From NCBI RefSeq assembly GCF_003018235.1, contig NZ_CP027437.1: a stretch of DNA of 64,000 bases; one strand, given 5' to 3'. The notes under the pieces are model-generated. The model saw only the letters and a program-made list of their open reading frames with translations. It was not told the DNA's origin and did no database searches. The DNA comes from Escherichia coli (GTDB lineage Bacteria > Pseudomonadota > Gammaproteobacteria > Enterobacterales > Enterobacteriaceae). Shown here piece after piece: positions 2,917 through 47,541 of the stretch. The position numbers and the translations under genes are program-made. Positions within the stretch are counted from its first letter, which is position 1; each line of letters opens with the position of its first letter.

Positions 2917-3900
<984 letters not shown>

Positions 3901-3956: not shown

Positions 3957-5260
3957 TTACTTCTGCTTCAACGCCGCATACACCTGATCAACTACCCAAC
4001 CATAAGTTGCAATCGGTAGCTGACCGCTTTCGAACATATTGGGATTTTTTTGTGGATCGGCAACTGGCGAATGTGGCTTGTTGCTTAACATCACAATCGC
4101 CATATGATTCACCGGATCGATAACGGTCACCGTCCCGGTCCAGCCAGTGTGACCGTAGGTTTGCGGGCTTGCCAGCGTGCCAAACGTCGGCGTCATGGTG
4201 GCATTACCATTCACGCGCCAGCCAAGGCCAAAAGTGGCATCTTCCTTAGAGCTGGTGGTGAACATCTTCACCGTTTCCGCACTGAACAGCTGCACATCGC
4301 CATAGCCGCCGCCGTTCAGCATCGTTTGCATTAACACCGCAATATCGCCGGTATTGGAAAACAACCCTGCATGCCCGGAAACGCCGCCCATCGAATAAAA
4401 GGCTTTTTCATCGTGCACCTGACCCCAGAGAGTGGAGGTGCGGATATTCGGGAAATGGATCACGCCATCGCGGGTATTGCCGTTGAGTTCCGTGGCGGCA
4501 ATTTGTTGCGGTTTAAAGCCTTTCAGTAGCGGATTAAACACCGTGTGCGTCAGGCCGAGCGGGCGATAAATCGACTCTTCAACATAGCGGTCAAGTGGCT
4601 GACCGGTAACCGACTCGACGATAAATCCAAGCAGCATATAATCGACATCGCTGTAGATATGCTTGCTGCCGGGCTGATACTCCAGCGGCGTGCGCTTGAT
4701 CATCTCCAGCGTCTGGCCTTTATCCTGGGAATATAACGCGCCCGTGACCGCTTTATTCGGGTATTGCGGATCTGCCGGGAAACCGCCGCTGTGATGCAGC
4801 AGATCAGAAATCCGCAGCGTGTTTTTGCCTTTGATCGCATCGTTCGGGCTGTCGGCAAACCCTGGAATATATTTCGCAATCCGATCGTCAGGATGCAGTT
4901 TGCCTTCGCTCATCAGCTTTTGCAGCGCGAAGTTAGTGGCGTACATCTTGGTGTTTGAGGCCAGATCATACAGCGTCCCGGTGGTGGCTTTTACAGGCTG
5001 CGCCATTAACGCGCTGCCATCGTACTTTTTCGCCGCGCCCCAGGCTTTGCGATAAACAATCTGATTATCTTTTATAATCAGCAGGTTTACTCCCGGATAA
5101 CCGGCATCCACCTGCTGGCTAATCCAGCGATCTATCTGGTTAAGCCGTTCGACGTTGAACCCTGCTTTCTCTGGCGAACTTTCTGTCAGAGCAGGGAATT
5201 TTGCGGCGCTGACGCTACAGCTAACAGCCAGCAGAGAAAGATAGAGCATTGTCCGTTTCA
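3957..5260 (-). CDS. yfeW: penicillin-binding protein 4B (class C beta-lactamase fold, SxxK)
   Basis: ORF track 3957..5348; start at 5260 (MKRTMLYLSLL signal peptide) gives 434 aa; 5 bp downstream of murP stop. Confidence 0.88.
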
Positions 5261-5265
5261 TGATA

Positions 5266-7761: not shown

Positions 7762-8619
7762 ATGTTGTACCTGACAAAATTACGCAATGCAGAAAGTGAC
7801 TTTACTGAAAATGAGCAAAAGATAGCCGACTTTCTGCAAGCCAGGGCGAGCGAACTGAAATCCGTTTCTTCACGAAATATGGCGAAACAGCTCGGTATTA
7901 GCCAGTCGAGTATTGTGAAGTTCGCTCAGAAACTCGGCGCGCAAGGGTTTACTGAATTGCGTATGGCGTTAATTGGCGAATACAGTGCCAGCCGGGAGAA
8001 AACGAATGCCACGGCGCTGCACCTGCACAGTTCGATTACCAGTGATGATTCGCTGGAAGTGATTGCCCGCAAACTGAATCGCGAAAAAGAGCTGGCGCTG
8101 GAGCAAACCTGTGCGTTGTTCGACTACGCGCGGCTGCAAAAAATCATTGAGGTCATCAGTAAAGCACCGTTTATCCAGATAACGGGCCTGGGTGGGTCGG
8201 CGCTGGTGGGGCGCGATCTTTCATTCAAACTGATGAAAATTGGTTATCGTGTTGCCTGTGAAGCTGACACGCATGTACAAGCCACCGTTTCCCAGGCGCT
8301 GAAAAAAGGCGATGTACAAATCGCTATCTCTTACAGCGGCAGTAAAAAAGAGATTGTCTTGTGCGCCGAGGCAGCGCGAAAGCAGGGGGCAACGGTGATT
8401 GCCATTACCTCATTAACCGATTCCCCGCTGCGGCGGCTGGCGCATTACACCCTCGATACCGTTTCTGGCGAAACCGAATGGCGCAGCTCGTCGATGTCCA
8501 CCCGCACGGCGCAAAATTCTGTTACCGATTTACTGTTTGTTGGCCTTGTGCAACTCAATGATGTGGAGTCATTGAAAATGATTGAGCGCAGCAGTGAGCT
8601 AACGCAACGCCTGAAATGA
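7762..8619 (+). CDS. murR: RpiR-family transcriptional repressor of murQP (HTH + SIS)
   Basis: ORF track 7723..8619; ATG at 7762 gives 285 aa starting MLYLTKLRN; divergent from murQ. Confidence 0.9.
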
Positions 8620-8747: not shown

Positions 8748-9539
8748 ATGGGTAAACTCACGGGCAAGACAGCACTGATTACGGGCGCATTGCAGGGAAT
8801 TGGCGAAGGAATTGCCAGAACTTTTGCGCGTCATGGCGCAAACCTAATCTTGCTGGATATCTCCCCTGAGATCGAAAAGCTGGCGGACGAACTGTGTGGT
8901 CGTGGTCATCGCTGTACGGCGGTTGTCGCCGATGTGCGTGACCCGGCGTCGGTCGCCGCAGCTATCAAGCGCGCGAAGGAAAAAGAAGGGCGCATTGATA
9001 TCCTGGTGAATAACGCAGGCGTTTGTCGTCTGGGCAGTTTCCTCGATATGAGCGATGAAGATCGCGATTTCCATATTGATATCAATATTAAAGGTGTATG
9101 GAACGTCACGAAGGCGGTGCTGCCGGAGATGATTGCCCGCAAAGATGGTCGCATTGTGATGATGTCTTCAGTCACTGGCGATATGGTGGCCGATCCGGGT
9201 GAAACGGCGTATGCCTTAACGAAAGCGGCGATTGTTGGCCTGACTAAATCGCTGGCGGTGGAGTACGCGCAGTCTGGTATTCGCGTTAACGCCATCTGCC
9301 CGGGATACGTTCGCACGCCAATGGCGGAAAGCATTGCCCGCCAGTCGAACCCGGAAGATCCAGAATCGGTGCTGACTGAAATGGCAAAAGCAATCCCGAT
9401 GCGTCGCCTCGCCGATCCGCTGGAAGTCGGCGAACTGGCAGCCTTCCTCGCATCGGATGAATCAAGTTATTTAACCGGTACACAGAATGTGATTGATGGC
9501 GGCAGCACACTGCCGGAGACGGTTAGCGTCGGCATCTGA
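8748..9539 (+). CDS. ucpA: short-chain dehydrogenase/reductase (GxxxGxG NAD(P) motif TGALQGIG)
   Basis: ORF track 8682..9539; ATG at 8748 gives 263 aa starting MGKLTGKTALITG. Confidence 0.9.
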   Translation: MGKLTGKTALITGALQGIGEGIARTFARHGANLILLDISPEIEKLADELCGRGHRCTAVVADVRDPASVAAAIKRAKEKEGRIDILVNNAGVCRLGSFLDMSDEDRDFHIDINIKGVWNVTKAVLPEMIARKDGRIVMMSSVTGDMVADPGETAYALTKAAIVGLTKSLAVEYAQSGIRVNAICPGYVRTPMAESIARQSNPEDPESVLTEMAKAIPMRRLADPLEVGELAAFLASDESSYLTGTQNVIDGGSTLPETVSVGI

Positions 9540-9709
9540 TTCACCTCTGTTTCCTCCCTGCATTTGTGGGGAGGATTTCGTCTTGAACCCGGTTCTTATT
9601 CCCTTTTCAACTTCCAAATCACCAAACGGTATATAAAACCGTTACTCCTTTCACGTCCGTTATAAATATGATGGCTATTAGAAAGTCATTAAATTTATAA
9701 GGGTGCGCA

Positions 9710-10726
9710 ATGGCCGTTAACTTACTGAAAAAGAACTCACTCGCGCTGGTCGCTTCTCTGCTGCTGGCGGGCCATGTACAGGCAACGGAACTGCTGAACA
9801 GTTCTTATGACGTCTCCCGCGAGCTGTTTGCCGCCCTGAATCCGCCGTTTGAGCAACAATGGGCAAAAGATAACGGCGGCGACAAACTGACGATAAAACA
9901 ATCTCATGCCGGGTCATCAAAACAGGCGCTGGCGATTTTACAGGGCTTAAAAGCAGACGTTGTCACTTATAACCAGGTGACTGACGTACAAATCCTGCAT
10001 GACAAAGGCAAGCTGATCCCGGCCGACTGGCAGTCGCGCCTGCCGAATAACAGCTCGCCGTTCTACTCCACCATGGGCTTCCTGGTGCGTAAGGGTAACC
10101 CGAAGAATATCCACGACTGGAATGATCTGGTGCGCTCCGACGTAAAGCTGATTTTCCCGAACCCGAAAACGTCGGGTAACGCACGTTACACCTATCTGGC
10201 GGCATGGGGTGCAGCGGATAAAGCTGACGGTGGCGACAAAGCCAAAACCGAACAGTTTATGACTCAGTTCCTGAAAAACGTTGAAGTGTTCGATACTGGC
10301 GGTCGTGGCGCGACCACCACCTTTGCCGAGCGCGGGCTGGGCGATGTGCTGATTAGCTTCGAATCGGAAGTGAACAACATTCGCAAACAGTATGAAGCGC
10401 AAGGCTTTGAAGTGGTGATTCCGAAAACCAATATTCTGGCGGAATTCCCGGTGGCGTGGGTCGATAAAAACGTGCAGGCCAACGGTACGGAAAAAGCAGC
10501 AAAAGCTTACCTGAACTGGCTCTACAGCCCGCAGGCGCAAACCATCATCACCGACTATTACTACCGCGTAAATAACCCGGAAGTCATGGACAAACTGAAA
10601 GACAAATTCCCGCAGACCGAACTGTTCCGCGTGGAAGACAAATTTGGCTCCTGGCCGGAAGTGATGAAAACCCACTTCACCAGCGGCGGCGAGTTAGACA
10701 AGCTGTTAGCGGCGGGGCGTAATTAA
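9710..10726 (+). CDS. cysP: thiosulfate/sulfate-binding periplasmic protein
   Basis: 338-aa ORF with signal peptide; first gene of cysPUWAM. Confidence 0.95.
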
Positions 10727-11559
10727 TGTTTGCAGTTTCATCAAGACGCGTGCTGCCGGGCTTTACCTTAAGCCTCGGCACCAGTCTGCTGTTTGTGTGC
10801 CTGATTTTGCTGCTGCCGCTCTCCGCGCTGGTGATGCAGCTGGCTCAGATGAGCTGGGCGCAGTACTGGGAGGTGATCACCAACCCGCAGGTGGTCGCGG
10901 CCTACAAAGTGACGCTGCTGTCGGCGTTTGTGGCATCAATTTTTAACGGCGTTTTCGGCCTGCTGATGGCGTGGATCTTAACTCGCTATCGCTTTCCGGG
11001 CCGCACGCTGCTTGATGCGCTGATGGATTTACCCTTTGCGCTGCCAACGGCGGTCGCAGGTTTGACGCTGGCCTCGCTCTTTTCAGTGAACGGTTTTTAC
11101 GGTGAATGGCTGGCGAAGTTTGATATCAAAGTTACCTATACCTGGCTGGGGATTGCGGTGGCGATGGCCTTTACCAGCATTCCGTTTGTGGTGCGTACCG
11201 TGCAACCGGTGCTGGAAGAGTTAGGCCCGGAATATGAAGAAGCGGCAGAAACGCTCGGCGCAACGCGCTGGCAGAGTTTCTGCAAAGTGGTGCTGCCAGA
11301 ACTTTCTCCGGCGCTGGTGGCGGGCGTGGCGCTGTCGTTTACCCGTAGTCTTGGTGAATTTGGCGCGGTGATTTTCATCGCCGGGAACATTGCCTGGAAG
11401 ACGGAAGTGACGTCGCTGATGATTTTTGTTCGCTTACAGGAGTTTGATTACCCGGCGGCGAGCGCGATTGCTTCGGTGATCCTCGCGGCATCCCTGCTGC
11501 TGTTGTTCTCAATTAACACTCTGCAAAGTCGCTTTGGTCGGCGTGTGGTAGGTCATTAA
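10726..11559 (+). CDS. cysU: sulfate/thiosulfate ABC transporter permease
   Basis: 277-aa ORF; start overlaps cysP stop. Confidence 0.95.
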   Translation: MFAVSSRRVLPGFTLSLGTSLLFVCLILLLPLSALVMQLAQMSWAQYWEVITNPQVVAAYKVTLLSAFVASIFNGVFGLLMAWILTRYRFPGRTLLDALMDLPFALPTAVAGLTLASLFSVNGFYGEWLAKFDIKVTYTWLGIAVAMAFTSIPFVVRTVQPVLEELGPEYEEAAETLGATRWQSFCKVVLPELSPALVAGVALSFTRSLGEFGAVIFIAGNIAWKTEVTSLMIFVRLQEFDYPAASAIASVILAASLLLLFSINTLQSRFGRRVVGH

Positions 11560-12434
11560 TGACGGAAGTTACCCAATTGAAGCGTTATGGCGCGCGCCCG
11601 ATTAACTGGGGCAAGTGGTTTCTGATTGGTATCGGGATGCTGGTTTCGGCGTTCATCCTGCTGGTGCCGATGATTTACATCTTCGTGCAGGCGTTCAGCA
11701 AAGGGCTGATGCCAGTTTTACAGAATCTGGCCGATCCAGACATGCTGCACGCCATCTGGCTGACGGTAATGATTGCGTTGATTGCCGTACCGGTAAACCT
11801 GGTGTTCGGTATTCTGCTGGCGTGGCTGGTGACGCGCTTTAACTTCCCCGGACGCCAGTTACTGCTGACGCTACTGGACATTCCGTTTGCCGTATCGCCG
11901 GTGGTTGCCGGTCTGGTGTATCTGCTGTTTTACGGCTCTAACGGCCCGCTCGGTGGCTGGCTGGATGAACATAATCTGCAAATTATGTTCTCCTGGCCGG
12001 GAATGGTGCTGGTCACCATCTTCGTGACGTGTCCGTTTGTGGTGCGTGAGCTGGTGCCGGTGATGTTAAGCCAGGGCAGCCAGGAAGACGAAGCGGCAAT
12101 TTTGCTTGGCGCGTCTGGCTGGCAGATGTTTCGCCGCGTCACGCTGCCGAACATCCGCTGGGCGCTGCTTTATGGCGTGGTGCTGACCAACGCCCGCGCG
12201 ATTGGCGAGTTTGGTGCGGTGTCGGTGGTTTCCGGCTCGATTCGCGGCGAAACACTTTCGCTGCCGTTACAGATTGAATTGCTGGAGCAGGACTACAACA
12301 CCGTCGGCTCCTTTACCGCTGCCGCGTTGTTGACGCTGATGGCGATTATCACCCTGTTTTTAAAGAGTATGTTGCAGTGGCGTCTGGAGAATCAGGAAAA
12401 ACGCGCGCAGCAGGAGGAACATCATGAGCATTGA
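11559..12434 (+). CDS. cysW: sulfate/thiosulfate ABC transporter permease
   Basis: 291-aa ORF; start overlaps cysU stop. Confidence 0.95.
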
Positions 12435-13521
12435 GATTGCCAATATTAAGAAGTCTTTTGGTCGCACCCAGGTGCTGAACGATATCTCACTGGATATTCC
12501 TTCTGGTCAGATGGTCGCATTGCTGGGGCCGTCTGGTTCCGGGAAAACCACGCTGCTGCGGATTATCGCCGGGCTGGAGCATCAAACCAGCGGGCATATT
12601 CGCTTCCACGGCACCGACGTCAGCCGCCTGCATGCGCGCGATCGTAAAGTTGGTTTCGTGTTCCAGCACTATGCGCTGTTCCGCCATATGACGGTGTTCG
12701 ACAATATCGCTTTCGGCCTGACGGTGCTGCCGCGTCGCGAGCGCCCGAATGCCGCAGCCATCAAAGCGAAAGTGACAAACTTGCTGGAGATGGTGCAGCT
12801 TGCGCATCTGGCGGATCGTTATCCGGCACAGCTTTCCGGCGGGCAGAAACAGCGCGTGGCGCTGGCGCGTGCGCTGGCTGTAGAACCGCAAATTCTGCTG
12901 CTTGATGAACCGTTTGGCGCGCTGGATGCGCAGGTGCGTAAAGAGCTGCGTCGCTGGTTGCGTCAACTGCATGAAGAACTGAAATTTACCAGCGTATTCG
13001 TGACCCATGACCAGGAAGAAGCGACCGAAGTAGCCGATCGTGTAGTGGTGATGAGCCAGGGCAATATCGAGCAGGCTGATGCGCCGGATCAGGTATGGCG
13101 CGAACCAGCGACCCGCTTTGTGCTCGAATTTATGGGCGAAGTGAACCGCCTGCAGGGAACCATTCGCGGCGGGCAGTTCCATGTTGGCGCACATCGCTGG
13201 CCGCTGGGCTATACACCTGCGTATCAGGGGCCGGTGGATCTCTTCCTTCGTCCGTGGGAAGTGGATATCAGCCGCCGTACCAGCCTCGATTCGCCGCTGC
13301 CGGTACAGGTACTGGAAGCCAGCCCGAAAGGCCACTACACCCAATTAGTCGTGCAGCCGCTGGGGTGGTACAACGAAGCGCTGACGGTCGTGATGCACGG
13401 CGACGACGCCCCGCAACGTGGCGAGCGTTTATTCGTTGGTCTGCAACATGCGCGGCTGTATAACGGCGACGAGCGTATTGAAACCCGCGATGAGGAACTT
13501 GCTCTCGCACAAAGCGCCTGA
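12424..13521 (+). CDS. cysA: sulfate/thiosulfate ABC transporter ATP-binding protein (Walker [10 protein letters not shown])
   Basis: 365-aa ORF; overlaps cysW by 11 nt. Confidence 0.95.
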
Positions 13522-13595
13522 TAGGTTGAGTGAATGTTAAACGCCCGGAGGCGCTTCCCGCGATCCGGGCTTTTTAATGGCAAGGTTTGTAACCT

Positions 13596-13632
13596 GTAGG
13601 CCTGATAAGACGCGCAAGCGTCGCATCAGGCA
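13596..13632. repeat. REP (repetitive extragenic palindromic) element
   Basis: GTAGGCCTGATAAGACGCGCAAGCGTCGCATCAGGCA imperfect palindrome between cysA and cysM. Confidence 0.7.
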
Positions 13633-13654
13633 ACACCACGTATGGACAGAGATC

Positions 13655-14566
13655 GTGAGTACATTAGAACAAACAATTGGCAATACGCCTCTGGTGAAGT
13701 TGCAGCGAATGGGGCCGGATAACGGCAGTGAAGTGTGGTTAAAACTGGAAGGCAATAACCCGGCAGGTTCGGTGAAAGATCGTGCGGCGCTTTCGATGAT
13801 CGTCGAGGCGGAAAAGCGCGGGGAAATTAAACCGGGTGACGTGCTGATCGAAGCCACCAGTGGTAACACCGGCATTGCGCTGGCAATGATTGCCGCGCTT
13901 AAAGGCTATCGCATGAAATTGCTGATGCCCGACAACATGAGCCAGGAACGTCGTGCGGCGATGCTGGCATACGGTGCGGAACTGATTCTTGTCACCAAAG
14001 AGCAGGGCATGGAAGGTGCGCGCGATCTGGCGCTGGAGATGGCGAATCGTGGTGAAGGAAAGCTGCTCGATCAGTTCAATAATCCCGATAACCCTTACGC
14101 CCATTACACCACTACCGGGCCGGAAATCTGGCAGCAAACTGGCGGGCGCATTACCCATTTTGTCTCCAGCATGGGAACAACCGGCACCATCACCGGCGTG
14201 TCACGCTTTATGCGCGAACAATCCAAACCGGTGACCATTGTCGGCCTGCAACCGGAAGAGGGCAGCAGCATTCCCGGCATTCGCCGCTGGCCTGCGGAAT
14301 ATCTGCCGGGGATTTTCAACGCTTCGCTGGTGGATGAGGTGCTGGATATTCATCAGCGCGATGCAGAAAACACCATGCGCGAACTGGCAGTGCGGGAAGG
14401 AATATTCTGTGGCGTCAGCTCCGGCGGCGCGGTTGCCGGAGCACTGCGCGTGGCAAAAGCTAACCCCGGCGCGGTGGTTGTGGCGATCATCTGCGATCGC
14501 GGCGATCGCTACCTCTCCACCGGCGTGTTTGGGGAAGAACACTTTAGCCAGGGGGCGGGGATTTAA
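13655..14566 (+). CDS. cysM: cysteine synthase B (O-acetylserine sulfhydrylase B)
   Basis: ORF track 13577..14566; GTG at 13655 gives 303 aa starting (M)STLEQTIGNTPLVKL; upstream extension runs through the REP so is spurious. Confidence 0.92.
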   Translation: MSTLEQTIGNTPLVKLQRMGPDNGSEVWLKLEGNNPAGSVKDRAALSMIVEAEKRGEIKPGDVLIEATSGNTGIALAMIAALKGYRMKLLMPDNMSQERRAAMLAYGAELILVTKEQGMEGARDLALEMANRGEGKLLDQFNNPDNPYAHYTTTGPEIWQQTGGRITHFVSSMGTTGTITGVSRFMREQSKPVTIVGLQPEEGSSIPGIRRWPAEYLPGIFNASLVDEVLDIHQRDAENTMRELAVREGIFCGVSSGGAVAGALRVAKANPGAVVVAIICDRGDRYLSTGVFGEEHFSQGAGI

Positions 14567-24119: not shown

Positions 24120-24338
24120 ATGGAAAAAGAGCAGCTGATTGAAATAGCCAATACGATAATGCCGTTTGGCAAATACAAAGGGCGTCGCTTAATCGACCTA
24201 CCGGAGGAGTATCTGCTGTGGTTTGCCCGCAAAGATGAGTTCCCGGCAGGGAAGCTCGGTGAGCTAATGCAAATCACGCTGCTGATTAAAACCGAGGGGC
24301 TGACGCAACTGGTCCAGCCCCTGAAGCGTCCGCTTTAA
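24120..24338 (+). CDS. ypeB: DUF3820-family small protein YpeB
   Basis: 72-aa ORF 2 bp after ligA. Confidence 0.8.
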   Translation: MEKEQLIEIANTIMPFGKYKGRRLIDLPEEYLLWFARKDEFPAGKLGELMQITLLIKTEGLTQLVQPLKRPL

Positions 24339-29797: not shown

Positions 29798-30682
29798 ATG
29801 GAACGCGTATACAGAACAGATCTTAAGTTGCTCCGTTATTTTCTTGCCGTAGCGGAAGAGTTGCATTTTGGTCGCGCAGCAGCGCGTTTAAATATGTCTC
29901 AGCCTCCGCTCAGCATTCATATTAAAGAGCTGGAAAATCAACTCGGCACGCAGCTTTTTATTCGCCATTCGCGCAGCGTCGTACTGACACACGCGGGCAA
30001 AATCTTGATGGAAGAATCGCGTCGATTGCTGGTGAATGCAAATAATGTATTGGCTCGGGTTGAACAAATAGGTCGGGGAGAAGCAGGGCGGATTGAACTC
30101 GGGGTTGTGGGAACGGCAATGTGGGGACGGATGCGCCCGGTTATGCGGCGATTCCTCAGGGAAAATCCTAACGTTGACGTTCTTTTTCGCGAAAAGATGC
30201 CCGCGATGCAAATGGCCCTGCTGGAACGACGTGAACTCGATGCCGGAATCTGGAGAATGGCGACAGAACCACCGGCAGGTTTTACCAGCTTACGGTTGCA
30301 TGAATCGGCGTTTCTGGTGGCGATGCCTGAAGAGCATCATCTCTCATCATTTTCCACCGTTCCGCTGGAAGCGCTACGTGACGAGTATTTTGTTACAATG
30401 CCGCCCGTGTACACTGACTGGGATTTTTTGCAGCGAGTTTGCCAGCAGGTGGGATTTTCACCGATTGTTATTCGCGAAGTTAATGAACCGCAAACGGTAC
30501 TCGCCATGGTCAGTATGGGTATTGGTATCACATTGATAGCGGACAGCTACGCGCAGATGAACTGGCCCGGTGTCATATTCCGTCCGCTCAAAGAACGCAT
30601 CCCGGCAGACTTATATATTGTTTATGAAACGCAGCAGGTGACGCCCGCGCTGGTTAAACTGCTGGCGGCGTTGGCGCAGTAG
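29798..30682 (+). CDS. xapR: LysR-family activator of xapAB
   Basis: ORF track 29783..30682; ATG at 29798 gives 294 aa starting MERVYRTDLKLLRYF. Confidence 0.92.
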   Translation: MERVYRTDLKLLRYFLAVAEELHFGRAAARLNMSQPPLSIHIKELENQLGTQLFIRHSRSVVLTHAGKILMEESRRLLVNANNVLARVEQIGRGEAGRIELGVVGTAMWGRMRPVMRRFLRENPNVDVLFREKMPAMQMALLERRELDAGIWRMATEPPAGFTSLRLHESAFLVAMPEEHHLSSFSTVPLEALRDEYFVTMPPVYTDWDFLQRVCQQVGFSPIVIREVNEPQTVLAMVSMGIGITLIADSYAQMNWPGVIFRPLKERIPADLYIVYETQQVTPALVKLLAALAQ

Positions 30683-30713
30683 ATGAGAGGCACGGGAACG
30701 GCCGGACATAGTT

Positions 30714-30740
30714 GGTCTGATAAGCGAAGCGCATCAGGCA
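30714..30740. repeat. REP element
   Basis: GGTCTGATAAGCGAAGCGCATCAGGCA. Confidence 0.6.
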
Positions 30741-30761
30741 ATTTCGCAAATTGCAGATAGC

Positions 30762-30789
30762 AAAAAAGCGCCTTTAGGGCGCTTTTTTA
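30762..30789. terminator. bidirectional intrinsic terminator (tRNA operon and xapR)
   Basis: AAAAAAGCGCCTTTAGGGCGCTTTTTT. Confidence 0.75.
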
Positions 30790-30792
30790 CAT

Positions 30793-30868
30793 TGGTGGGT
30801 CGTGCAGGATTCGAACCTGCGACCAATTGATTAAAAGTCAACTGCTCTACCAACTGAGCTAACGACCC
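30793..30868 (-). tRNA. lysV: tRNA-Lys (anticodon UUU)
   Basis: Reverse complement reads GGGTCGTTAGCTCAGTTGGTAGAGCAGTTGACTTTTAATCAATTGGTCGCAGGTTCGAATCCTGCACGACCCACCA. Confidence 0.95.
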
Positions 30869-30872
30869 GAAG

Positions 30873-30948
30873 TGGTGGGTGATGACGGGATCGAACCGCC
30901 GACCCCCTCCTTGTAAGGGAGGTGCTCTCCCAGCTGAGCTAATCACCC
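30873..30948 (-). tRNA. valY: tRNA-Val (anticodon UAC)
   Basis: Reverse complement reads GGGTGATTAGCTCAGCTGGGAGAGCACCTCCCTTACAAGGAGGGGGTCGGCGGTTCGATCCCGTCATCACCCACCA. Confidence 0.95.
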
Positions 30949-30994
30949 ACTTCGGTACTTCACATTGCTACAAGAAATTTAGCTGGCGAGAAAG

Positions 30995-31070
30995 TGGTGG
31001 GTGATGACGGGATCGAACCGCCGACCCCCTCCTTGTAAGGGAGGTGCTCTCCCAGCTGAGCTAATCACCC
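30995..31070 (-). tRNA. valX: tRNA-Val (anticodon UAC)
   Basis: Identical 76-nt copy. Confidence 0.95.
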
Positions 31071-31114
31071 ACTTCTCAATTTCTTGCTACACGGCGGAGA
31101 CTACATAAAGTAGT

Positions 31115-31190
31115 TGGTGGGTGATGACGGGATCGAACCGCCGACCCCCTCCTTGTAAGGGAGGTGCTCTCCCAGCTGAGCTAATCACCC
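31115..31190 (-). tRNA. valU: tRNA-Val (anticodon UAC)
   Basis: Identical 76-nt copy; first in the operon. Confidence 0.95.
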
Positions 31191-31207
31191 CCGCTGTGTG
31201 GAGTCGC

Positions 31208-31235
31208 ATTATAGGGAGAGTTCAAAATGAGTCAA
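31208..31235 (-). promoter_or_regulatory. sigma-70 promoter of valU-valX-valY-lysV operon
   Basis: Minus strand: TTGACT - 16 bp - TATAAT followed by GC-rich discriminator GCGACTCC; AT-rich upstream. Confidence 0.6.
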
Positions 31236-31448
31236 CGCATTTTCTAAAGAAATTGTTCGTTCGTCGTAAATTTAAGCAAGATGATCGCAAAACAGACCGT
31301 GTTGCGCAATTTGTCAACGAAAACAATAATGCGTAAGGTTGCAACCCGAACTACATTGAGGAATCAGGCGGGAGTGATAGAATATCGCCCACTCAATTTT
31401 TCCAGGATTTGCCGGTTGTCGGCATCTTTCTAAACGTAAGGCCATTTC

Positions 31449-32864
31449 ATGAAAATCAAAACTCGCTTCGCGCCAAGCCCAACAGGCTATCTGCACGTTG
31501 GCGGCGCGCGTACTGCTCTTTACTCCTGGCTTTTTGCACGTAACCACGGCGGTGAGTTCGTGCTGCGTATTGAAGACACCGATCTTGAGCGTTCCACGCC
31601 GGAAGCTATCGAAGCCATTATGGATGGCATGAACTGGCTGAGCCTGGAGTGGGATGAAGGTCCGTACTACCAGACCAAACGTTTTGATCGCTACAACGCG
31701 GTGATCGATCAGATGCTGGAAGAGGGCACAGCTTATAAATGCTATTGCTCTAAAGAGCGCCTGGAAGCGCTGCGCGAAGAGCAAATGGCGAAAGGTGAGA
31801 AGCCGCGTTATGACGGTCGCTGCCGCCACAGCCATGAGCATCATGCTGATGATGAACCGTGCGTTGTACGTTTTGCTAACCCGCAGGAAGGTTCTGTTGT
31901 TTTTGACGATCAGATCCGTGGCCCGATTGAGTTCAGCAACCAGGAGCTGGATGATCTGATTATCCGTCGTACCGATGGTTCTCCAACCTATAACTTCTGT
32001 GTGGTGGTTGACGACTGGGATATGGAAATCACCCACGTTATCCGTGGCGAAGACCATATCAACAACACGCCACGCCAGATCAACATTCTTAAAGCACTGA
32101 AAGCGCCGGTACCGGTTTACGCGCACGTTTCTATGATCAACGGCGATGACGGCAAAAAACTGTCCAAACGTCACGGGGCGGTCAGCGTAATGCAGTATCG
32201 TGATGACGGTTATTTGCCAGAAGCACTGCTGAACTATCTGGTGCGTCTGGGCTGGTCCCACGGCGATCAGGAAATCTTCACTCGTGAAGAGATGATCAAA
32301 TACTTCACCCTGAATGCCGTCAGCAAATCTGCCAGTGCGTTCAACACCGACAAGCTGCTGTGGCTGAACCATCACTACATTAACGCGCTGCCGCCGGAGT
32401 ATGTTGCTACTCACTTACAGTGGCACATTGAGCAGGAAAATATCGATACCCGTAACGGCCCGCAGCTGGCTGATCTGGTGAAACTGCTGGGCGAACGCTG
32501 CAAGACGCTGAAAGAGATGGCACAGAGCTGCCGTTATTTCTACGAAGATTTTGCTGAGTTCGATGCCGACGCCGCGAAAAAACATCTGCGTCCGGTAGCG
32601 CGTCAGCCGCTGGAAGTAGTTCGTGACAAACTGGCCGCGATTACTGACTGGACCGCTGAAAACGTTCATCACGCTATTCAGGCGACGGCGGATGAGCTGG
32701 AAGTGGGTATGGGTAAAGTTGGTATGCCGCTGCGTGTCGCCGTAACCGGTGCGGGGCAGTCTCCGGCGCTGGATGTTACCGTTCACGCAATCGGTAAGAC
32801 CCGCAGTATCGAGCGTATCAACAAAGCGTTGGCTTTTATTGCTGAACGCGAAAATCAGCAGTAA
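31449..32864 (+). CDS. gltX: glutamyl-tRNA synthetase (HVGG = HIGH and KLSKR = KMSKS motifs)
   Basis: 471-aa ORF. Confidence 0.96.
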
Positions 32865-32887
32865 TTAGCGCATAAAAGATAAACGGC

Positions 32888-32921
32888 AGGAGAGATACCC
32901 CTGCCGTTTTTTATTTATTCT
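32888..32921. terminator. intrinsic terminator after gltX (overlaps yfeD stop)
   Basis: AAACGGCAGGAGAGATACCCCTGCCGTTTTTT. Confidence 0.6.
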
Positions 32922-33888: not shown

Positions 33889-33964
<76 letters not shown>

Positions 33965-34003
33965 AATTTTGCACCCAGCAAATTTGGTACGTAAACGCAT
34001 CGT

Positions 34004-34079
<76 letters not shown>

Positions 34080-38054: not shown

Positions 38055-39302
<1,248 letters not shown>

Positions 39303-39382: not shown

Positions 39383-40700
<1,318 letters not shown>

Positions 40701-45418: not shown

Positions 45419-46504
45419 ATGACATTACTCGCTTCGCTGCGTGACTGGCTTAAGGCGCAACAACTGGATGCGGTGCTTCTCTCCTCACGGCAGAACAAAC
45501 AGCCGCATCTGGGGATCTCCAGCGGATCAGGCTATGTGGTGATTAGCCGTGAAAGTGCGCACATTCTGGTGGACTCGCGCTATTACGCGGATGTCGAAGC
45601 CCGCACGCAAGGTTACCAGCTACATTTGCTTGACGCGACGCACACGCTTGCAACCATCGTCAATAAAATCATTGCCGATGAGCAGTTGCAAACGCTCGGT
45701 TTTGAAGGCCAGCAGGTAAATTGGGAAACCGCGCACCGCTGGCAGTCTGAACTCAATGCGAAACTGGTAAGCGCCACGCCGGATGTGCTGCGGCAAATCA
45801 AAACGCCAGAGGAGGTGGAGAAAATCCGCCTCGCCTGTGGGATTGCCGATCGCGGAGCGGAGCATATTCGCCGCTTTATTCAGGCGGGGATGAGCGAATG
45901 CGAGATTGCTGCTGAACTGGAGTGGTTTATGCGCCAGCAGGGCGCAGAAAAAGCCTCTTTCGATACCATTGTCGCCAGTGGCTGGCGTGGGGCGCTGCCG
46001 CACGGCAAAGCCAGCGACAAGATTGTTGCAGCGGGCGAGTTTGTCACTCTCGATTTCGGTGCGCTGTATCAGGGTTACTGCTCTGATATGACGCGTACCT
46101 TGCTTGTGAATGGCGAAGGGGTGAGCGCCGAATTTCACCCGCTGTTTGACGTCTATCAGATTGTTTTGCAGGCACAGCTCGCAGCAATCTCCTCGATTCG
46201 CCCCGGCGTGCGCTGCCAGCAGGTTGACGACGCCGCGCGCCGGGTCATTACAGAAGCAGGTTATGGCGACTATTTCGGTCATAACACCGGTCATGCTATC
46301 GGTATTGAAGTCCATGAAGATCCGCGTTTTTCACCGCGGGACACCACGACGCTACAGCCAGGCATGTTACTGACCGTGGAGCCGGGGATTTATTTGCCAG
46401 GGCAAGGGGGCGTGCGCATCGAAGATGTTGTGCTGGTCACCCCGCAAGGCGCAGAAGTGCTCTACGCCATGCCGAAAACAGTGTTGCTCACGGGAGAGGC
46501 ATAA
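45419..46504 (+). CDS. ypdF: Xaa-Pro aminopeptidase (M24 family)
   Basis: 361-aa ORF inside the fry operon. Confidence 0.88.
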
Positions 46505-47541
46505 TGGATTTATCGTTATTAAAAGCGTTGAGCGAGGCAGATGCGATCGCCTCCTCGGAACAGGAAGTGCGGCAGATCCTGCTGGAAGAAGCGGATCGCC
46601 TGCAAAAAGAAGTGCGATTTGACGGCCTGGGATCGGTGCTGATCCGCCTCAATGAATCGACAGGTCCGAAGGTGATGATCTGTGCGCATATGGATGAAGT
46701 GGGATTTATTGTACGCAGCATCTCCCGCGAAGGGGCGATCGATGTGTTGCCGGTTGGCAATGTACGCATGGCTGCCCGCCAGCTTCAGTCGGTGCGTATC
46801 ACTACCCGTGAAGAGTGCAAAATTCCAGGCCTGCTTGACGGCGACCGGCAGGGGAATGACATCAGCGCCATGCGCGTGGACATTGGTGCGCGCTCGTATG
46901 ACGAAGTGATGCAGGCGGGAATTCGTCCAGGCGATCGCGTCACCTTTGATACAACTTTTCAGGTTCTCCCTCACCAGCGGGTGATGGGGAAAGCCTTTGA
47001 TGATCGCCTCGGTTGCTATCTGCTGGTGACGTTACTACGTGAGCTGCACGACGCCGAACTGCCTGCGGAGGTGTGGCTGGTGGCCAGCTCCAGCGAAGAG
47101 GTGGGATTACGCGGCGGGCAAACCGCTACCCGTGCGGTTTCACCGGACGTTGCGATTGTGCTGGATACCGCCTGCTGGGCGAAAAACTTTGATTATGGCG
47201 CGGCTAACCATCGCCAGATTGGTAACGGCCCGATGCTGGTATTAAGCGACAAGTCGCTGATTGCGCCGCCAAAACTTACCGCGTGGATTGAAACCGTGGC
47301 GGCAGAAATTGGCGTGCCGTTACAGGCAGATATGTTCAGCAACGGCGGCACGGACGGTGGAGCGGTGCATTTAACTGACACCGGCGTACCCACGGTGGTG
47401 ATGGGGCCAGCGACGCGCCACGGACATTGTGCGGCATCGATTGCCGATTGCCGCGACATTTTGCAGATGCAGCAACTTTTATCTGCCCTTATTCAACGTC
47501 TTACCCGTGAGACGGTTGTTCAACTGACGGATTTCAGATGA
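46504..47541 (+). CDS. ypdE: M42-family aminopeptidase
   Basis: 345-aa ORF; start overlaps ypdF stop. Confidence 0.88.

Follow-up and report, generated by a model that had tools for sequence, protein, structure and literature searches.

Overlapping stop and start codons between neighbouring genes invite the question of whether translation of the downstream gene depends on that of the upstream one. In the 64,000-nucleotide stretch of Escherichia coli DNA analysed here (the window), such junctions lie within cysPUWA and between ypdF and ypdE, and an earlier note had taken them to indicate translational coupling of ABC-transporter and peptidase subunits. We asked whether the overlaps are real, whether the products are subunits of common complexes and how far the overlaps speak for coupling. 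The genes and junctions are as follows.

9710..10726, plus strand: cysP CDS, thiosulfate/sulfate periplasmic binding protein, 338 aa
10726..11559, plus strand: cysU (= cysT) CDS, permease, 277 aa
11559..12434, plus strand: cysW CDS, permease, 291 aa
12424..13521, plus strand: cysA CDS, ABC ATPase, 365 aa
45419..46504, plus strand: ypdF CDS, M24 aminopeptidase, 361 aa
46504..47541, plus strand: ypdE CDS, M42 aminopeptidase, 345 aa
10724..10728, plus strand: TAATG, cysP stop and cysU start, A10726 common to both (-1 overlap)
11557..11561, plus strand: TAATG, cysU stop and cysW start, A11559 common to both (-1 overlap)
12424..12434, plus strand: 11-nt overlap of cysW and cysA, with the cysA ATG at 12424 and the cysW TGA at 12432-12434
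46502..46506, plus strand: TAATG, ypdF stop and ypdE start, A46504 common to both (-1 overlap)

The open reading frame listing and direct reading of the sequence placed the cysP TAA at 10724-10726 and the cysU ATG at 10726-10728, the cysU TAA at 11557-11559 and the cysW ATG at 11559-11561, and the ypdF TAA at 46502-46504 and the ypdE ATG at 46504-46506. The single shared bases described in the earlier note, including that at 46504, are therefore present as TAATG, and its 11-nt cysW/cysA overlap is exact. The cysA frame is +1 relative to cysW, and the cysW stop codon begins 8 nt downstream of the cysA start. The gene names given in the note were also right, in agreement with Pfam and NCBIfam.

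That the overlaps are annotation artefacts, with the true starts lying downstream, is hardly credible. In-frame alternatives do exist (GTG at codon 9 of cysU, TTG at codon 7 of cysW and TTG at codon 9 of ypdE), and although all six proteins span curated NCBIfam models (CysT 1-277/277, CysW 1-291/291, YpdE 1-345/345), the PRK-type models among these were built from the same annotated enterobacterial proteins and are not independent evidence. However, the differences between E. coli and Klebsiella in codons 3-6 of cysU are all synonymous and in the third position, and cysW codon 5 also carries a synonymous difference. Enterobacter keeps the start position of ypdE as GTG, shows synonymous changes in frame from codon 2 onward and has CTG in place of the alternative TTG. 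CysA offers no other start codon, and the subfamily model TIGR00968 covers it from residue 3; YpdE is aligned from residue 2 by broader M42 models, and in the PDB the chains of both YpdE and YpdF start at the same residues as annotated. None of the reading frames has a start codon further upstream than the one proposed. NCBI PGAP spacings are identical (-1, -1, -11; -1) in E. coli O158:H23, AST215, TUM2826 and IAI1, and the PGAP annotation of Klebsiella pneumoniae has the same junctions. The start codons are thus supported by full-length family-model matches together with in-frame synonymous substitutions. Start-codon re-annotation, which the earlier note had named as what would undo the overlaps, was considered and rejected on the substitution patterns between E. 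coli, Klebsiella and Enterobacter and on family-model coverage; the overlaps stand.

Whether the products are subunits of one complex has a different answer at the two loci. Pfam assigned SBP_bac_11, BPD_transp_1 (twice) and ABC_tran to the cys proteins, with CysA_C_terminal under its cut-off, and the NCBIfam subfamily model of CysP and the equivalog models of CysT, CysW and CysA were matched end to end and well over their cut-offs. A binding protein, two permeases and an ATPase are encoded together, as expected of the sulfate/thiosulfate ABC importer CysPTWA. Judged by these assignments, the products of cysU, cysW and cysA are subunits of one ABC importer, and to them the description as transporter subunits applies; CysP is a periplasmic binding protein and not a stoichiometric membrane subunit. 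The term "peptidase subunits", in turn, is unsupported. YpdF contains Peptidase_M24 and Creatinase_N and YpdE contains Peptidase_M42 (Pfam), which are unrelated families; PDB 5cnx (YpdF, 3 chains) was matched by YpdF alone and PDB 1ylo (a YpdE orthologue, 6 chains) by YpdE alone, and Huber et al. (2023; PMC10666635) label the pair "CMPLX not". Each of the two was crystallised without its neighbour, and a heteromeric YpdF/YpdE complex finds no support in these observations. YpdF and YpdE are unrelated stand-alone aminopeptidases.

Both sets of genes are co-directional, all cys and ypd pairs lying on the same strand. Within 9400-13800, no sigma-70-like promoter was found (0 against 2.5 expected from shuffles), and the sole strong terminator-like hairpin sits before cysP, which together are consistent with one polycistronic mRNA; a cysP cysU cysW cysA cysM operon is described in the literature. 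Co-transcription of ypdF and ypdE is inferred from the spacings of 14-24 nt in fryB-fryC-ypdF-ypdE-fryA.

As the earlier note had proposed, we inspected the junctions for internal Shine-Dalgarno (SD) motifs and found an SD-like motif inside the upstream reading frame before all four downstream starts.

10714..10717, plus strand: weak SD-like GGGG before cysU, in the cysP 3' end, 8 nt 5' of the ATG
11550..11553, plus strand: SD-like AGGT (in GGTAGGT) before cysW, 5 nt 5' of the ATG
12412..12417, plus strand: strong SD AGGAGG before cysA, 6 nt 5' of the ATG, in an unstructured context
46492..46499, plus strand: SD-like GGGAGAGG before ypdE, in the ypdF 3' end, 4 nt 5' of the ATG

The motifs differ in strength. 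For annotated starts in the window, the median aSD duplex energy is -5.6 kcal/mol, against -2.9 kcal/mol for the coding background. The cysU GGGG reaches -6.2 kcal/mol and the cysW AGGT -6.7 kcal/mol, values matched or exceeded by 11.5% of random coding windows and 7.9% of the coding background, respectively; both exceed the background only marginally and are weak against it. The motifs of cysA and ypdE clearly exceed it: AGGAGG reaches -10.3 kcal/mol (0.5% of the coding background at least as strong), the third strongest value among annotated starts scored in the window, and GGGAGAGG reaches -7.4 kcal/mol (4.8%). The AGGAGG is kept in Klebsiella despite non-synonymous changes in the flanking CysW codons, and the GGGAGA core of the ypdE motif is also kept in Enterobacter.

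Overlaps of this kind are non-random yet very common in bacterial gene packing. The window holds 37 same-strand neighbouring CDS pairs, six of which overlap, three by exactly -1; two of the overlapping pairs, ypeA/yfeZ (-14) and ypeD/mntH (-20), were absent from the earlier note. Genome-wide, -1 is the second commonest spacing, behind -4. The junctions themselves are already known, being tabulated for each gene pair in published supplementary data: Table S2 of Huber et al. (2023; PMC10666635, Front Microbiol 14:1291523) gives -1, -1, -11 and -1 for the K-12 pairs and labels all three overlapping cys pairs "CMPLX yes", and Table S4 gives a median CysU-CysW spacing of -1 nt (q1 -4, q3 +9; n=516 gene pairs). 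Across all 5,425 E. coli genomes that carry cysU-cysW, identity to the window over this DNA is 95-99%, and one plasmid-collection record contains a CysW 100% identical to the window's. As a discovery, this textbook operon packing carries little weight; the check is useful in confirming the annotated start codons and in correcting the idea of YpdF and YpdE as subunits of one enzyme.

For coupling itself, the published evidence comes from other junctions. Four of five native overlapping E. coli pairs tested were coupled, three of them -1 pairs (hyfHI, ydbH/ynbE and menDH; Huber et al. 2019 and 2023), in which coupling acts through a short -99..+30 region. Reinitiation fell on removal of the SD in four of the five pairs, and coupling collapsed once the stop/start spacing was raised to about 20 nt. 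By published accounts, coupling peaks at -4..+3 nt and weakens as the overlap lengthens, and spacings of -8..+10 are regarded as predictive of reinitiation. The three -1 junctions lie within both ranges, whereas cysW/cysA at -11 falls outside the predictive one. In addition, subunits of heteromeric complexes are 4.5-fold enriched among short overlaps in E. coli. The remaining tested pair, bioBF, overlaps and was not coupled (Huber et al. 2019), so an overlap alone is insufficient. The claim that the overlaps indicate coupling therefore has to be softened: an overlap suggests rather than proves coupled translation, and from their sequence features coupling at these junctions is plausible. The case is weakened further at cysW/cysA by the spacing beyond the predictive range and by the strong SD that belongs to cysA itself.

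Our literature search, which did not extend to Li et al. (2014) or the cys papers of 1990 in J Bacteriol, returned no experiment on these cys or ypd junctions and no paper connecting cysPUWAM to ribosome profiling or translational coupling. Of these genes, the Burkhardt 2017 supplement lists cysP only and the PMC9624429 supplements none. In the proteome tables of Mori 2021, the mass of CysA and that of CysP exceed that of CysU several-fold and most CysW entries are zero, levels that argue against simple 1:1 coupling; membrane proteins are, however, poorly quantified by mass spectrometry, and these tables are not usable for membrane-protein stoichiometry.

We consider it probable that these are ordinary compact junctions within the cysPUWA(M) and fryBC-ypdFE-fryA operons, combining reinitiation at TAATG, mostly independent initiation of cysA, and overlaps that arose by stop-codon drift. 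At the TAATG junctions, a ribosome ending the upstream reading frame would sit directly on the downstream AUG, and a fraction of terminating ribosomes would reinitiate there, aided by the SD-like motif that the upstream gene carries in its last codons; the output of cysU and cysW would thereby be tied to upstream translation. cysA is probably largely self-initiated, because of its strong AGGAGG, the unstructured context and a start lying 8 nt before the cysW stop, and coupling would be at most secondary; such de novo initiation would fit a stoichiometry of 2 CysA : 1 CysU : 1 CysW. Any coupling of ypdF and ypdE would serve the co-expression of two separate enzymes and not complex assembly. As to origin, the upstream stop codon most plausibly drifted until it abutted or entered a downstream start that stayed in place, and such drift is seen directly in Enterobacter ypdF, where TAA has become GAG with a 27-nt extension.

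The main competitor holds that the overlaps are neutral by-products of compaction and stop-codon drift, with each downstream gene initiating independently at its own SD-like site. We regard it as unlikely, yet deserving of weight. The SD-like motifs of all four downstream starts are at or above the window median, that of cysA being strong and in an unstructured region; bioBF overlaps and yet initiates de novo; and overlapping E. coli pairs are about as variable in relative translation efficiency as non-overlapping ones. The type of junction also varies freely between taxa, Enterobacter ypdF being merely 27 nt longer, and no extra conservation was detected at the junctions, which fell at the 32nd, 68th and 81st percentiles of 45-nt windows compared between E. 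coli and Klebsiella over the rest of the operon. Against this, initiation at cysU and cysW would be weak if independent, since their motifs barely beat random coding windows, and coupling was found in most of the native pairs tested, as described above. Tight CysU-CysW spacing holds over the 516 gene pairs, and a ribosome terminating at TAA covers the overlapping AUG, which makes some interaction hard to avoid. A very improbable alternative is that cysU/cysW is coupled by RNA unfolding, ribosomes finishing cysU melting a hairpin at the cysW start so that a fresh 30S binds.

11530..11584, plus strand: predicted local hairpin at the cysW start, -16.6 kcal/mol, z = -1.67

The predicted hairpin pairs most of the cysW AUG, with A11559 in the loop and the SD-like AGGU unpaired in an internal loop. 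No other annotated start scored in the window folds as stably over -30..+30 as that of cysW, and with a frequency of 0.45 this structure, in which most of the AUG is paired, is the dominant one of its ensemble. However, its z is only -1.67, with 16 of 200 shuffles folding at least as well, the predicted fold differs in E. coli TUM2826 and in Klebsiella with no compensatory substitutions, and no Rfam family matches the hairpin; across 9400-13800, Rfam returned only a sub-threshold REP/naRNA4-like match after cysA and a chance-level match (E = 0.9) upstream of cysP. At the remaining three junctions, folding is average or weaker than in shuffles (z = +1.99, +1.44 and -0.37). A conserved regulatory RNA structure at the junctions was considered and not adopted: only cysU/cysW folds stably, with marginal significance and a fold that is not conserved.

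Within one ABC-transporter operon, the junctions thus differ in SD strength and local structure. We think it improbable that they represent three deliberately distinct designs tuning subunit ratios, in which a weak-SD -1 junction would lower translation from the abundant CysP to CysU, a hairpin-gated -1 junction (11530-11584) would impose a strict 1:1 ratio of CysU to CysW and a strong-SD -11 junction would provide two CysA per complex by de novo initiation in addition to reinitiation; if this were true, the junctions would be stoichiometry devices and not incidental packing. The differences in SD strength and local structure make cysPUWA a convenient, not a special, test case for the contribution of overlap-mediated coupling versus independent initiation to subunit ratios.

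The closest known system is cysPUWAM of K-12 (b2425-b2421; PMC10666635 Table S2), which has the same genes in the same order and with the same spacings as the window (cysP/cysU -1, cysU/cysW -1, cysW/cysA -11, cysA/cysM +133) and differs only in alleles. Beyond it, we compared 11 annotated loci from other taxa and the published CysU-CysW spacings (n=516). In cysPTWA-type operons of alphaproteobacterial, cyanobacterial and actinobacterial replicons, the genes for the binding protein, CysT, CysW and the ATPase are likewise tightly packed, and SD-like motifs often lie in the end of the upstream gene, as in the window. Unlike in the window, their spacings range from -11 to +67: +1/+3/+11 in Cereibacter, +3/+1/+13 in Ponticoccus, -4/-11/+15 in S. 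meliloti, +8/-11/+10 in Rhizobium and +67/-8 in Pseudanabaena, with alphaproteobacterial cys operons spanning -11 to +15. The Paracoccus operon has cysA first, and Pseudanabaena has no adjacent cysA. By this comparison, the precise type of junction is not maintained beyond Enterobacteriaceae. In Enterobacter hormaechei (CP103578.1), ypdF and ypdE share the E. coli arrangement of PTS IIB, IIC, ypdF, ypdE, a ptsP-like gene and an AraC regulator; ypdE starts at the same aligned position but with GTG instead of ATG, and the longer ypdF overlaps it by 28 nt instead of 1.

Among pairs studied by experiment, hyfH/hyfI, ydbH/ynbE and menD/menH resemble the -1 junctions of the window in being co-directional, with a 1-nt overlap and an SD-like motif in the upstream gene; their coupling was measured with premature-stop variants and mRNA normalisation, whereas no comparable measurement turned up for the cys or ypd junctions. 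The bioB/bioF pair is also overlapping, co-directional and in an operon, and bioF was initiated de novo in the tested construct. Given the strong SD of cysA, bioB/bioF is the likely model for that gene.

The overlapping stop/start junctions that the earlier note described in cysPUWA and ypdF/ypdE are present in this E. coli chromosomal segment, which runs from hemF to yfdE. The genes were placed from six-frame ORF lists and the sequence itself.

Genes flanking the four junctions
9710-10726, + strand, cysP, sulfate/thiosulfate binding protein
10726-11559, + strand, cysU (cysT), permease
11559-12434, + strand, cysW, second permease
12424-13521, + strand, cysA, ABC ATPase
45419-46504, + strand, ypdF, aminopeptidase
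46504-47541, + strand, ypdE, aminopeptidase

Direct reading confirmed that stop and start share the A of a TAATG at cysP/cysU (10724-10728), cysU/cysW (11557-11561) and ypdF/ypdE (46502-46506, shared base 46504), and that cysA overlaps cysW by 11 nt, from its ATG at 12424 to where the cysW TGA (12432-12434) ends. Overlaps occur in 6 of the 37 same-strand neighbouring CDS pairs in the window, with spacings (negative for overlap) of -1 three times, -11, -14 (ypeA/yfeZ) and -20 (ypeD/mntH). The last two, at 1820-1833 and at 38064-38083, where the small ORF ypeD covers the mntH start, were absent from the earlier note's list. The 3' ends of yfeH (-) and ypeB (+) overlap convergently by 4 nt (24335-24338).

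In published surveys of bacteria and archaea, a spacing of -4 is much the most frequent, with -1 and -8 ranking next, and 707 of 2,987 co-directional E. coli pairs are spaced between -8 and +6. Together with the overlap counts in the window, these surveys indicate that the pattern is non-random, yet extremely common. Table S2 of Huber et al. 2023 (PMC10666635) lists the K-12 pairs cysP/cysU, cysU/cysW and cysW/cysA at -1, -1 and -11 (all 'CMPLX yes') and ypdF/ypdE at -1 ('CMPLX not'); the four junctions are therefore an already documented, ordinary feature. Median spacings in Table S4 of that paper are -1 for CysU-CysW (q1 -4, q3 +9, n=516) and +5.7 for CysW-CysA (q1 -4, q3 +26, n=305).

Re-annotation of start codons, named beforehand as what would refute the overlaps, is now very unlikely, based on annotation, family models and substitution patterns. 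NCBI annotation gives identical relative coordinates in Klebsiella pneumoniae and in four strains of E. coli, among them carriers of the most divergent sampled alleles; every proposed start is the furthest-upstream start codon of its ORF in the six-frame lists, and each of the six proteins has a full-length match to a curated NCBIfam model. For cysA no other start is left, as TIGR00968, a subfamily model, already aligns from CysA residue 3. Substitution patterns provide the more independent evidence: between E. coli and Klebsiella, all differences in cysU codons 3-6 are synonymous third-position changes and that in cysW codon 5 is synonymous, and Enterobacter hormaechei ypdE has a GTG start at the same aligned position as in E. 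coli, with in-frame synonymous changes from codon 2. A TTG considered as an alternative ypdE start was rejected; it is CTG in E. hormaechei. Downstream, the cysM start is the GTG at 13655, and not ATG 13577, from which the mechanical ORF runs. Antisense ORFs (-) within cysP (9947-10675, 242 aa, GTG start) and cysA (12487-13344, 285 aa, TTG start) are probably shadow ORFs from codon bias.

The proposed inspection for Shine-Dalgarno (SD) motifs was carried out by scoring pairing with the 16S rRNA 3' tail (aSD duplex) over -22 to -3 relative to each start annotated in the window, with 6,731 windows from within coding sequences as background for the four junctions. SD-like motifs precede all four downstream starts and differ in strength; median duplex values were -5.6 kcal/mol for annotated starts and -2.9 kcal/mol for the coding background.

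SD-like motifs: motif, aSD duplex, share of background coding windows with an equal or stronger duplex
cysA: AGGAGG at 6-nt spacing, -10.3 kcal/mol, 0.005
ypdE: GGGAGAGG, -7.4 kcal/mol, 0.048
cysW: AGGT, -6.7 kcal/mol, 0.079
cysU: GGGG, -6.2 kcal/mol, 0.115

Local folding (-30 to +30 around starts, against shuffled controls) was weaker than in shuffles at cysP/cysU (z = +1.99) and cysW/cysA (z = +1.44) and average at ypdF/ypdE (z = -0.37). At cysU/cysW, a -16.6 kcal/mol hairpin with a mostly paired AUG is predicted, the most stable among annotated starts scored in the window, with a z of only -1.67; a different fold is predicted for E. coli TUM2826 and for Klebsiella, and compensatory substitutions are absent. 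The junctions gave no Rfam family matches. The cys operon contained no promoter-like sites, and upstream of cysP lies a terminator-like hairpin. Within the 133-nt cysA-cysM spacer, a GC-rich hairpin leads into a run of T (GCCCGGA...TCCGGGCTTTTT, about 13543-13577); the terminator scan left it unflagged because its loop is too long. Downstream lies a REP element (13595-13632), where naRNA4 matches in part and short of the gathering score.

Translational coupling, as the earlier note proposed for all four junctions, is plausible for three of them. Coupling has been demonstrated for the native E. coli -1 overlaps hyfHI, ydbH/ynbE and menDH, where it needs very short spacing and usually an SD, and reviews describe it as most efficient at -4 to +3 nt and weaker with longer overlaps. 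By analogy, the three TAATG junctions can reasonably be expected to show some termination-reinitiation, which would apply above all to cysU and cysW because their own SD-like motifs are weak. The proposal fares less well at cysW/cysA, whose -11 spacing falls outside the range considered predictive (-8 to +10); its strong SD, open context and long overlap suggest that cysA is probably mainly self-initiated, and this would suit the [CysA]2[CysU][CysW] stoichiometry quoted in the literature. Overlap alone does not prove coupling, and the mechanism at each junction is one that we infer: bioBF overlaps without coupling, and relative translation efficiencies of overlapping E. coli ORF pairs spread about as widely as those of non-overlapping pairs. 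In proteome tables, CysA and CysP stand well above CysU, and CysW is mostly undetected, membrane proteins being measured poorly. A reading in which each of the three cys junctions is a device tuned to set stoichiometry, with a hairpin gating cysU/cysW, appears improbable and, if true, would be of modest interest.

The term 'peptidase subunits' is unsupported for YpdF and YpdE. Their families are unrelated (Creatinase_N plus Peptidase_M24, and Peptidase_M42), PDB 5cnx (YpdF, three chains) is matched by YpdF only and 1ylo (Shigella YpdE orthologue, six chains) by YpdE only, and PMC10666635 scores the pair as no complex. Their coupling, if it occurs at all, would serve co-expression in the fryBC-ypdFE-fryA operon, not complex assembly. 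CysP, too, is not a stoichiometric membrane subunit; it is the binding protein of the periplasm.

Gene order in the window follows that of E. coli O158:H23 CFIAFB20140388, the strain best matching its cys region. An IS110-family element, IS621 (about 1.28 kb, 39388-40665), is inserted within a REP sequence in the mntH-ypeC interval, and O158:H23 lacks it at the corresponding site. Its transposase ORF (39493-40473, -, 326 aa; DEDD_Tnp_IS110 and Transposase_20 domains) is listed in RefSeq as 'IS110-like element IS621 family transposase'. A locus spanning 80% or more of the query occurs in 1,591 E. coli genomes, and the non-coding ends of the element match no Rfam family. An IS200/IS605 TnpB/TnpA remnant between yfeD and gltX in O158:H23 (29967-31608 of comparison locus L003) is missing from the window (32864-32920), and the yfeD 3' ends differ. 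The murR gene (7762-8619; 93% identity) is intact here, but in O158:H23 an internal stop makes it a pseudogene. Alignment of pbp4b (3963-5261) with that strain is incomplete at the 3' end. Two tRNA clusters encode Lys(UUU) and three Val(UAC) (30793-31190, -) and two Ala(GGC) (33889-34079, +).

Among 5,426 complete E. coli genomes, 5,425 contain matches to the cys query and 5,423 to the ypd query. Cys operons of other taxa were annotated loci from tblastn of a plasmid/chromid collection, in which CP125156.1, NZ_CP134663.1 and NZ_CP064203.1 are not plasmids but mislabelled chromosomes of 4-5 Mb; CysW of NZ_CP134663.1 (E. coli, gull) is 100% identical to that of the window.

Spacing in cys operons (binding protein-CysT / CysT-CysW / CysW-CysA, nt)
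Klebsiella: -1 / -1 / -11
Paracoccus (cysA first; A to binding protein -4): -1 / -4
Ponticoccus: +3 / +1 / +13
Pseudanabaena (without adjacent cysA): +67 / -8
Cereibacter: +1 / +3 / +11
S. meliloti: -4 / -11 / +15
Rhizobium: +8 / -11 / +10
Tsukamurella: -1 / +58 / -11

Tight packing is thus general among cys operons and the exact overlap is not. The cys junctions show no extra conservation between E. coli and Klebsiella, their 45-nt windows ranking at the 32nd, 68th and 81st percentiles (operon identity 84.6%). Enterobacter hormaechei keeps the ypdFE operon, but with a 28-nt overlap (3501-3528 of its CP103578.1 locus, L014) compared to 1 nt in E. coli: GAG replaces the TAA of ypdF, which consequently reads on, and ypdE still starts at the equivalent position and keeps the GGGAGA core in its SD. 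As judged from this alignment, the pair would illustrate how overlaps originate, with an upstream stop drifting against a fixed downstream start, and offers a natural case of overlap lengthening via stop-codon loss.
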